Assembly: GCF_013167455.1 (NCBI RefSeq)
Contig: NZ_CP038328.1
DNA: 64,000 nucleotides
Reading direction: 5' to 3' (one strand)
From: Escherichia coli O157:H7
GTDB taxonomy: Bacteria > Pseudomonadota > Gammaproteobacteria > Enterobacterales > Enterobacteriaceae
Position numbers: made by a program. Of the stretch, positions 24,001 through 27,000 are shown one piece after another. Position 1 is the first letter of the stretch; each line of letters starts with the position of its first letter.

Positions 24001-27000
24001 AAAATCAATAATCAAGCCCTTGCCTGGATACATATCTGTCTGGCGGGAAGCCATAATAGCGGTGAAATACAGAAATAAAGTAGGACCAGCTTGAATAACC
24101 GCATTTTTCTGCTACAGCCTGTCCATATCCATGCCGGGAACATAACATATTGACAGCAACACGCATCCGCTCTTCCAGCAACAAGCGACTGAACATGTGC
24201 CCTTCATTTTTCAGTTTTATCTTTAACAAACTCTCACTCATATGCAGGCGTAACGCAATCGCACCAAGCGTCCAGCTTGCTGATATATCTGTCTGAATTA
24301 TCGCCCTGACTTTGGCACTTATACTGGATAAACATCCACTTAAAAATAATAATATCCGTTCATCTGATTCAAACAGCGACAGGCATGCCATCATAAGAAA
24401 CATATCCGTGGTATCTCCGGAAAATCTCTGGCTGGTAATTAAAGCCTCAGCCAACGCAGGGTTGTTGGGTTCCAGTGACAGATAAAGCGGAACGTCAGTC
24501 AGATGAGTTCTTGTCAGCTTATGCTGAATTTCCAGATATTGACTTACTATGGAATGGTTTATATCGAAAATTTTAACTTTGCCATAATGCATAAGGAAAA
24601 GCGCCCTGATGCATTTGGTGGCCAGAACGACTGAGCCGGGCTTAAGTGACAACGTATCCTTTTCAAGAAAAATATTAATTGGGGAGCAAACCATGATAAC
24701 TGAACAGACAACAACCATTATAATTTTACTTTCATTAGCAATTGGTTAGTTCAATTATAGCCCCAAAAGGTAAATTATCATCAACACATAAGCAAAGGAC
24801 TGACAGGTGCCGCTAACACCCACCAGCCGCCCATTTACCACAAATAAAAAAGCCTTCAGGACTGAAGGCGTCTGTAACAACCGAACTGATAGTCTGCCAG
24901 ACCCGCATAACCAGCTGGGTCAGTATTAACTGGCAGCGCTCGCGTGAAAGGTACGTATTCTGCGCAATCTCCCCGACCGTCGCCGGTTCGGTGACGCTTA
25001 ATTCATCAAACACAACTCTGGCGGTTTCTGTCATATCCTGCTGTTTCAGCATGTCTTTTTACCCTTTCCGGTTAACGTGACACACCAATAACTCTTGTCG
25101 AAAAAGCCAGCAAGCTGAAAGACCTGTATTAATAACTACCAGCACATTTAACGCACTGCGCTACTTTGCGGGCACAAAAAACCCGCTCAGAGGCGGGGTC
25201 AAGCTATGCGGCGAAATAACCACTCTTAACAGCATACCTGATTTTTTACGTACGTAAATGCTTTGCCGTGCATATTTTTCATGCAAATGTCACGTCCTGC
25301 TATTTTTCAGTCTTATAAATTTAAAACCATAGAAAAAATCAATTATGTTTTAAAAATGGATAGGTAAAGAATAACAAGTGACACAGATTCAAACCAAAAT
25401 GGAAAAGGGTGGCAACCCACAAACGCCCACTCCACATCCATGACAATCCATACACAACACCAGATAACGTGGCAAATAATACAAGTAAAGCACCACCTGA
25501 ATAGTGATAAAAACCAAACAACAAAGCCGCCACAATTAATGCAACCAATGGAGACGTTACTTCTGATAGCCGTGATTGAATATACCCTCTAAATAATGAT
25601 TCCTCTGCCAGAGACACAAAAAACAAATTAGCCAATATAAACTCTGGCAACCACTCAGGAAAATGAATCTCTGGCTTTAATCCACCAAAAAAAACAGCCA
25701 AAAACAGGATAAGAGGAACAGAGAGCGACAGAGCCCCCCACTTCCACAAAGACACTTCTGATTTTACTTCTTTTTTAAACAAAGAAGATGTACACAGGAC
25801 TAACAAAAATGGCACCAGCGCTTTATCAAAATTAAAATACATTGTATAGGGAGTACTTTGAGGGCCAACAGTAACAGAATTTAGCACTACAGGATTGTGA
25901 AACCCTGGCCATAGATGGAAAAATAATGCTATGGCTGATAAAACTATGCCAACTTCATATATAGATTTAGCCCAGGCGTTATATTTCCAGTTGAACTTCA
26001 AAATAATAAAAAAAACGATTGTAGCAACAAAAAATAACACCGACCAATCAATAATATCATTAAGCACAGCCAGGACAACAGACACCGTCAACAATGAAAA
26101 AGCCACTACCTTATGCCAACTGAGAGTTGACAGTGACAGTACTAACACAATCCACATAAGCACTCCTTTTATTTAATGATGAAGATTGATTATCAATATT
26201 TTCAATTCACCAGGCAACATTTTATCTACCTTCCACAATACATGACCATCAAAAAATAAACATGTTAATTATAAACACAGAAAATATAACCCTCATCACT
26301 ATATATCCCTACCGCATATCCATATCTAACCGGACATTCAGAGCCATAAGCATTCCTTCAATAATACCTTCCGCTTTATAAAGCCTTTTACCAATAAGCC
26401 CATCAGAACATCTATGCTTACGTGCAAGAGCCATAAATGTCATTCCACCTACGTAATAATCCACCAACAAATCGTGCAAATACTGATTATTCTTGTTTAA
26501 TCGTGCCATACAACCACAAATTATCATGGCGTCATCATCAGAACACTTAGGACGTGATTTCACTTTAGTCGGGATTAATCCTTTAAAACCAGCAGCTATC
26601 GAGGGCCATGTTACATCTTCATGATTATTTGCTGCCCATGCCCCCCATCGCTCAAGAACCATCTGGATATCACGCGCCATCGTTACCACCTCTGATTTCG
26701 TAAATCTTCACGCCCAGCCGTCCACCTGGCACAGGCTGACCGCGCACAATATTGATTTCATCAAACTGCTCGTCATCAATGAGCACTTCCGCATGCGTCA
26801 GCGCATCCAGCGGTGCTTTCAGAATGTTGTCCAGGTCACGGCGGCGCTTATCCGGTGGTTCTGCAATAATTTTTATTGCCAGCCGTCCGGACAGGCTTAA
26901 TTTCAGCCGCTGCTGGCGAACAATAAGCGCCACAGCCCGGCGATAACGCTCACCGGCTTTTGATACAAAATATGTGCTGCCACGACGTCGCCAGTAGGTG

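Follow-up and report, generated by a model that had tools for sequence, protein, structure and literature searches.

The late regions of lambdoid phages carry accessory genes, or morons (stx, bor and lom, for example), and in the phages encoding Shiga toxin (Stx) the antiterminator gene Q is followed by tRNA genes, stx, nanS-p and the lysis genes. The CPBP superfamily of proteases, also known as type II CAAX prenyl endopeptidases, groups Rce1, SpdC/LyrA, the bacteriocin-immunity or “Abi” proteins and the myxosortases, and some Gram-positive CPBP proteins confer bacteriocin self-immunity. PsrA and PsrB are reportedly prophage-encoded secretion regulators, described as such by Tree and colleagues in 2011. 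Here, we analysed a stretch of 64,000 nucleotides (nt) from Escherichia coli O157:H7 (assembly GCF_013167455.1, contig NZ_CP038328.1), hereafter the window, and within it the cargo slot located between Q and a cluster of phage tRNA genes. Three genes are found in this slot, encoding a CPBP intramembrane protease, a small winged-helix-like protein and an AraC-family regulator. An initial annotation had proposed that they could form a previously undescribed module of phage exclusion or immunity, one that brings its own regulator.

The slot downstream of Q and its three genes

In all likelihood, the post-Q cargo (“moron”) slot of this prophage, Sp4/CP-933M, holds three separate and already catalogued transcription units, and not one system. 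We consider the genes as separate units because of the signals that lie between them, their opposite regulation and their independent distribution. The identities of the genes, the anatomy of the slot and the independent distribution are established in this analysis. The locus is not previously undescribed, since it corresponds to Z1787-Z1788-Z1789 (ECs1085-1087): Z1787, the protease gene, was knocked out in 2009, and Z1789, the AraC gene, is inferred to be psrA. As a discovery it matters little, as both larger genes have been catalogued and studied experimentally and the trio is not a system. The genes themselves being already known, what is mildly new is solely the close association of the protease gene with Q.

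The window corresponds to Sp4/CP-933M, a lambdoid prophage found in E. coli O157:H7. Many chromosomes of E. coli O157:H7 contain the 3.2-kb region around the slot with 100% identity, and there it is annotated as CPBP, TrmB pseudogene and helix-turn-helix (HTH) protein. In the Sakai annotation, ECs_1085, ECs_1086 and ECs_1087 sit in prophage Sp4 with pchA (ECs_1091) close by, as in the window, and the corrected EDL933 assembly encodes the same proteins in CP-933M. ORF (open reading frame) calling gave three co-oriented ORFs, all on the minus strand, between Q and the phage tRNAs (Table 1), and the proposal of horizontally acquired cargo downstream of Q was supported. The percentage of guanine and cytosine (GC) agreed with the AT-rich character attributed to the cluster for the CPBP gene (37.7%) and the AraC gene (42.3%), and disagreed with it for the small ORF (51.2%). 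The spacer between Q and the CPBP gene falls to 27.8% GC and Q itself is rather AT-rich (42.0%), while the flanking genes rusA, DUF968 and nanS-p reach 53.5%, 53.0% and 55.5%, and the whole window 50.6%. The slot shares with the lambdoid morons its position, its AT-rich composition and its own promoter- and terminator-like signals: these signals are at the level of the consensus, the GC of the two larger genes deviates from that of the flanks (~53-55%), and published RNA sequencing (RNA-seq) reports expression without induction. Its layout resembles that of the Stx phages, but this prophage carries no stx gene, and the two cargo positions of its slot are split by a conserved leader, the small ORF and a terminator.

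Table 1. Features of the slot downstream of Q and of the rest of the window (PGAP, NCBI Prokaryotic Genome Annotation Pipeline; aa, amino acids)
Feature	Position	Strand	Basis or remark
Antiterminator Q, PF06530 type	26309-26689	-	PGAP start ATG 26680, 123 aa, “antiterminator Q family protein”; homologues carry PF06530
Q-CPBP spacer with promoter-like sites	26158-26308	-	Promoter scan; alignment of spacers from seven loci
CPBP/Rce1-like intramembrane glutamic protease, 272 aa (Z1787 / ECs1085 / WP_000265265.1)	25339-26157	-	Pfam, motifs, AlphaFold2, primers
Conserved non-coding element, ~110 nt, after the CPBP stop	25176-25300	-	Alignment over CPBP lineages of 62-100% identity
80-nt leader before the small ORF	25053-25130	-	Nearly invariant in seven loci
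Small winged-helix-like ORF (Z1788 / ECs1086)	24813-25052	-	Alignment; PGAP “TrmB family, frameshifted”; phrog_331 (unknown function) E=5.7e-32
Terminator-like hairpin GCCTTCAGTCCTGAAGGC, then TTTTTT	24852-24869	-	Terminator scan; its loop holds the stop of the ORF in the intact 65-aa form
Promoter-like site ATGATA-16-TATAAT	24754-24781	-	Top-scoring site of the promoter scan, 10/12 matches; the AraC start codon follows after 36 nt
AraC/XylS-family regulator, YdeO/GadX-like branch, 237 aa (Z1789 / ECs1087 / WP_000261909.1), most probably PsrA	24005-24718	-	Profiles, identity
Phage tRNA cluster ileZ (CAT anticodon), argN, argO; closes the slot	23727-23976	-	ARAGORN, Sakai annotation
pchA, PerC-family activator of LEE, a virulence island	19716-20030	+	ORF; Sakai ECs_1091 = pchA
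STnc100 small RNA	23460-23650	-	Rfam, 138 bits (gathering score 47)
IS629 (IS3 family)	20235-21211	-	Frameshift pseudoknot ALIL at 20814-20930
hok/sok type I toxin-antitoxin	28461-28875	-	HokD ORF 28551-28763; sok RNA 28701-28875 (106 bits)
isrK-like match	28461-28542		27 bits, under the gathering score
Alpha/beta hydrolase gene (ECs_1077)	29311-30084	+	34.4% GC

To follow the three genes beyond this strain, we collected 50 prophage loci encoding the protease or a relative of it and scored their neighbours, 49 of these loci being assessable for a downstream AraC gene. The AraC gene follows the CPBP gene in 20 of the 49, all belonging to one near-identical lineage; outside this lineage it never adjoins the CPBP gene, and the three genes therefore do not travel together, contrary to what a common module would imply. 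In one locus (L039), the small ORF and then a DNA methylase gene, instead of AraC, come after a CPBP gene identical to that of the window. In the lineage with 96% identity in CPBP, the remnant of a methylase gene is found along with other genes, the 83% lineage leads straight into a holin gene and the 84-85% lineage into stx1, and both AraC and stx are lacking from the 60-62% lineage. The AraC gene is just as independent: homologues with 88-91% identity follow a lipoprotein gene (in an Stx2k phage), a TfpB gene or another type of Q (in CP-933O), and those with 58-63% identity follow a methylase gene. Of 5426 complete E. coli genomes, 573 have the CPBP gene, 725 have the AraC gene over at least 80% of its length and 534 have the cluster in full. 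Most of the CPBP copies (547 out of 573) are at least 99% identical. The apparent linkage between CPBP and AraC is therefore clonal, as their co-occurrence is confined to a near-identical lineage.

In contrast with AraC, Q is a real travelling companion of the protease. A Q gene of the PF06530 type, with 79-100% identity, lies directly upstream of the CPBP gene in 48 of the 50 loci (L008, L027-L072, L075), and one further locus (L073) has a Q of the zinc-finger type in this position. The gap between the two genes is of 146-158 nt in 45 loci and longer in three, in which only part of the CPBP gene aligned. This adjacency holds through 60-100% divergence of the protein and across two Q families. 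The protease family is widespread in Enterobacterales and tightly linked to Q in prophages, where it sometimes lies directly upstream of stx genes.

Several loci of the collection combine these genes with stx. In L041, from IMG/VR, Q, CPBP, the small ORF and AraC are followed by a StxA homologue. In the Stx2k phage phiSTEC1575-Stx2k (L002), the small ORF, AraC and tRNAs precede stx2. Divergent CPBP variants are found ~790 nt upstream of stx1 (L021-L024, L031-L033 and L067 among the loci noted).

Signals resembling promoters and terminators bracket the genes of the slot. In the spacer between Q and CPBP, a site TTGCCT-17-GATAAT (26217-26189), a consensus match, is kept in three of the four CPBP lineages, a perfect TATAAT lies ~45 nt past the Q stop, and the ribosome-binding site AAGGAG precedes ATG 26157. 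The ~110-nt element that follows the CPBP gene ends in a hairpin resembling an intrinsic terminator (CCCGCCTCTGAGCGGG, then TTTTTT; stem 25197-25182), and this stem is retained despite changes in loop and stem, even in the lineage with 62% identity in CPBP. The element may be the terminator or 3' untranslated region of the CPBP gene, a small RNA, or the true late promoter with its leader and terminator; an Rfam scan of it matched no family. A second terminator-like hairpin (24869-24852) lies at the end of the small ORF, and the best promoter-like site of the scan lies just upstream of AraC.

The reading frame of the small ORF is not intact in the window. By alignment with six intact copies of 65 aa found elsewhere, one G is missing at ~24906/24905, and the resulting frameshift swaps the last 16 residues of the protein for 30 residues that are out of frame; PGAP likewise marks the gene as a frameshifted pseudogene. 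As we read the alignment, the copies differ mostly at synonymous sites, and the 65-aa family is therefore a real coding gene. Z1788 is a frameshifted copy of a conserved winged-helix-like gene that belongs downstream of Q in many Stx-type prophages. The winged-helix assignment itself is weak: the intact form matches TrmB (E=0.0027) and several winged-helix families (E=0.04-0.17), and the copy of the window gives no significant match, its best being HTH_20 (E=0.29).

The 80-nt leader that precedes the small ORF is nearly invariant in L002, L008, L012, L014, L018, L021 and L025. It is kept across prophages with different Q types and different cargo neighbours. This invariance suggests a conserved regulatory leader downstream of Q.

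Published RNA-seq data also separate the genes. In lysogeny broth, the values are 5 for Z1786 (Q), 39 for Z1787, 11 for Z1788 and 7 for Z1789, and with antibiotics the log2 changes are -4.1, +2.3, +2.1 and -5.3, respectively. Moreover, Z1789 is up at pH 9, at pH 4 and in faeces, conditions in which Z1787 is flat. The expression of the cluster from the late promoter, which had been assumed, is not supported: the genes are bracketed by promoter- and terminator-like sites, Z1787 is expressed above Q without induction, and Z1787 and Z1789 are regulated in opposite directions. Nor do these data fit a module that includes its own regulator, given the separate signals, the opposite regulation and the lack of shared travel.

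We also searched for the late promoter pR' by comparing the window with the post-Q regions of two close relatives of its Q that have no CPBP gene (L003 and L016), and found only words of 7-13 nt, at chance level, in common. The alignment of the spacers yields two candidate pR' sites.

Several points weigh against the division of the slot into three separate and already catalogued units. The promoters and terminators are consensus matches only, and the RNA-seq counts are low. As pR' was not located, read-through into all three genes on induction is possible. For the AraC gene, the identification as psrA depends on the order of the genes and on its 91% identity to PsrB. Finally, the literature assigns the cluster to CP-933N, whereas in the Sakai assembly and in the corrected one of EDL933 it lies beside pchA, in Sp4 and CP-933M respectively.

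The protease Z1787 and the explanations of its role

The CPBP assignment was confirmed by profile search (PF02517, E=1.4e-19, residues 171-260), and the three motifs are present: EExxxR (E185-E186-R190), FxxxH (F214-H218) and HxxxN (H253-N257). Across 28 homologues that share 47-84% identity, the catalytic residues of these motifs do not vary. The probable start is ATG 26157, six bases inside the earlier GTG 26163, as indicated by the AAGGAG upstream, by the 272-aa call of PGAP and by a published knock-out arm. AlphaFold2, run on the alignment of the homologues, predicted an almost entirely helical, polytopic membrane fold (pLDDT, the predicted local distance difference test, 94.7). The best two PDB matches of this model are Rce1 (4CAD, probability 0.93) and SpdC (6U0O, probability 0.99, template modelling score or TM-score 0.47-0.51), although the similarity of fold is modest overall (TM-score 0.38-0.51, E ~0.03). 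Z1787 is thus catalytically intact as judged from its sequence, and proteolysis is predicted.

Z1787 shares with the CPBP superfamily the Pfam domain, the three motifs and the predicted fold. Unlike the described members, it has no bacteriocin, sorting-signal or kinase partner gene nearby. Matches to NCBIfam models, including the myxosortase and ABC-CPBP models, are weak, and Z1787 belongs to no named subfamily since all of them are far below the curated cut-offs. In the N-terminal half, the alignment of the homologues shows a conserved stretch specific to the subfamily, H81...PGFHN...S101...MYFNFDKALVPF. In Enterobacter, Salmonella, Citrobacter, Dickeya, Serratia and Photorhabdus, among others, homologues with ~50% identity occur as single genes on the chromosome, and the neighbours are unrelated at the chromosomal loci examined in Enterobacter and Salmonella. 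A tblastn search of the protein against 50,697 GenBank phage records gave no match; among sources of phage type, the gene was seen only in prophages and in IMG/VR contigs.

The CPBP gene of the window is Z1787 because the primers and recombineering arms published with its knock-out match the window exactly (PMC2654852). Each of the reverse transcription PCR primers of Jandu et al. matches once, inside the CPBP gene, and the lambda-Red arms correspond to the sequence ending at ATG 26157 and to that around the stop at 25339. Jandu et al. (2009) studied Z1787 as a “protease on O-island 50” and deleted it (PMC2654852). The mutant no longer blocked the tyrosine phosphorylation of STAT-1 induced by interferon-gamma (119% vs. 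4.7% of the uninfected control; PMC2654852). On this proposal, Z1787 would act in virulence by blocking the interferon-gamma/STAT-1 signalling of host cells, and its transcript was indeed up 2.7-fold with HEp-2 cells (PMC2654852). However, complementation was partial, HB101 carrying Z1787 gave a partial effect only, and T84 cells brought no induction (PMC2654852). Moreover, the protein was treated as a possibly released protease, whereas the sequence and the model describe a membrane-embedded CPBP protein with several transmembrane helices, and a polytopic intramembrane protease cannot be “released” onto host cells as the authors proposed. The mutants were selected on kanamycin with no removal of the cassette described, and this cassette lies ~0.6 kb upstream of psrA, so that an effect through psrA is conceivable; the native terminator was kept in the published mutant, which speaks against strong polarity on psrA. 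Altogether, we consider a direct role of Z1787 in blocking STAT-1 signalling unlikely. The phenotype of the knock-out is most likely indirect, because Z1787 is a polytopic membrane protein and not a secreted protease. It cannot work as originally proposed. Our literature search found no later paper naming Z1787.

Z1787 more probably acts within the bacterium. Occupying the first position of the slot, it is presumably made in the lysogen, driven by a promoter of its own or perhaps by the leader of the late promoter, and there most likely cleaves a bacterial envelope or exported protein. A rival explanation goes further, in that Z1787 alone is a factor of lysogenic conversion, providing superinfection exclusion or immunity to colicins, microcins or contact toxins by cleaving or sequestering an envelope protein. 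This would agree with its expression above Q in uninduced lysogens, with its intact and strongly conserved catalytic residues, and with the precedents of immunity and of envelope-enzyme scaffolding (SpdC, 6U0O) in the CPBP family; its retention directly behind Q over such divergence and across two Q families suggests a selection for the phage. However, a search of PADLOC-DB 2.0 returned no family for the CPBP or the AraC protein, and for the small ORF a single non-significant match (E=0.012), so that the suggested link to abortive infection found no support. The “abortive infection” label of the CPBP Pfam family (“Abi”) is historical and is not known to come from a demonstrated anti-phage role. 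In addition, no bacteriocin or toxin gene adjoins the CPBP gene in the window, nor in the chromosomal and prophage homologue loci examined, and in many Enterobacterales the close homologues occur as ordinary genes of the chromosome that stand alone. No such phenotype has been reported, and our literature search found no paper on a prophage CPBP protein. We therefore regard this explanation as quite improbable.

In another form of this idea, the CPBP gene would be a fixed passenger of the Q module, located in the leader between pR' and the first terminator, constitutively expressed in the lysogen, read through under Q, and acting at the envelope as a factor of exclusion, immunity or lysis timing. 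The spacing of 146-158 nt, the conserved promoter-like site upstream and the conserved ~110-nt element downstream led us to this proposal, which is equally doubtful.

Lastly, that the trio forms one module of phage exclusion or self-immunity, with the AraC regulator and/or the small HTH protein controlling the protease, is extremely improbable: the genes are co-oriented and adjacent and the whole cluster recurs in 534 genomes, but this co-occurrence is clonal, methylase, lipoprotein or TfpB genes replace one partner or the other elsewhere, the small gene is frameshifted in the window, terminator-like hairpins and opposite regulation separate the CPBP and AraC genes, PADLOC gives no significant match, and the reported targets of PsrA are the host genes gadE and yhiF.

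The regulator gene and the placement of its locus tags

The AraC assignment was upheld by profile search (HTH_18, E=9e-9; HTH_AraC, E=9e-4). The protein also matches positions 1-230 of the 253 of the NCBIfam YdeO profile (E=9e-30); it is not YdeO itself, as the score is under the equivalog cut-off, and its full-length resemblance to GadX likewise stays under the curated threshold. It shares 91% identity with the copy of CP-933O, Z2104 (PsrB), and 37% over its full length with the Sp1 regulator ECs_0287, which is probably PatE. O157 genomes typically carry two copies of the AraC gene detectable by blastn.

In the literature, psrA is Z1789, and PsrB (Z2104, CP-933O) is its closest homologue with 90% identity (PMC10877973, PMC8565820). 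PsrA activates gadE and yhiF of the host and indirectly represses type III secretion, and it is not reported as regulating its own neighbours (PMC10877973, PMC8565820). According to a review, psr genes associate with pch regulator genes. The AraC gene of the window, which is YdeO/GadX-like and near a pch gene, resembles PsrA, PsrB and PatE in this respect.

We take it as psrA because the order of the Z tags, anchored at Z1787 by the primers of that gene, matches and because of the 91% identity to PsrB. In a published table using the 2001 annotation of EDL933, Z1786 (“Q antiterminator of CP-933N”) is followed by the hypothetical Z1787 and Z1788, by Z1789 (“putative envelope protein”), by no coding sequence for Z1790-Z1792, and then by Z1793 and Z1794 (“holin”). 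The order of the window (Q, CPBP, small ORF, AraC, three tRNAs, nanS-p) mirrors this old order from Z1786 to Z1794. The AraC gene is thus most probably psrA, as far as order and similarity can tell. In the second position of the slot, it would, following the literature, activate gadE and yhiF, raising acid resistance and indirectly repressing the type III secretion of LEE. Literature searches with the WP_ accessions and with ECs1085-1087 gave no matches.

The prophage is the point on which the gene differs from the published psrA. The literature assigns Z1787-Z1789, i.e. the “OI-50 protease” and psrA, to O-island 50 (OI-50)/CP-933N, whereas in the corrected assemblies this gene sits in CP-933M/Sp4 (L026 in EDL933, L011 in Sakai). 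No AraC homologue was detected in the corrected CP-933N of EDL933 (L017; by tblastn) or in Sp6 of Sakai (L015), which carry TerB and DUF3927 genes at the corresponding position. In CP-933M as annotated earlier, three genes labelled “hypothetical” come ahead of the holin gene. From the missing homologue in CP-933N/Sp6 and these three genes, it looks as though the late regions of CP-933M and CP-933N were swapped in the 2001 assembly. Such a misplacement of the tags could affect the reading of the phenotypes of O-island deletions.

Other features of the window

Downstream of the tRNAs and upstream of nanS-p, the window matches the small RNA STnc100 well above the gathering score. Beyond nanS-p, an IS629 element is inserted, and pchA then comes in the opposite orientation. 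At IS629/pchA, the window has a rearranged late region, as in Sakai and EDL933; in strain PV15-279 (L001), the holin gene comes directly after nanS-p.

A hok/sok type I toxin-antitoxin system is also present, with a weak isrK-like match at one end of it. Finally, among the early genes, the opposite strand carries a strongly AT-rich cargo gene whose annotation is alpha/beta hydrolase. We compared it with a gene of equal length located beside the probable PatE in Sp1, and the two are unrelated.

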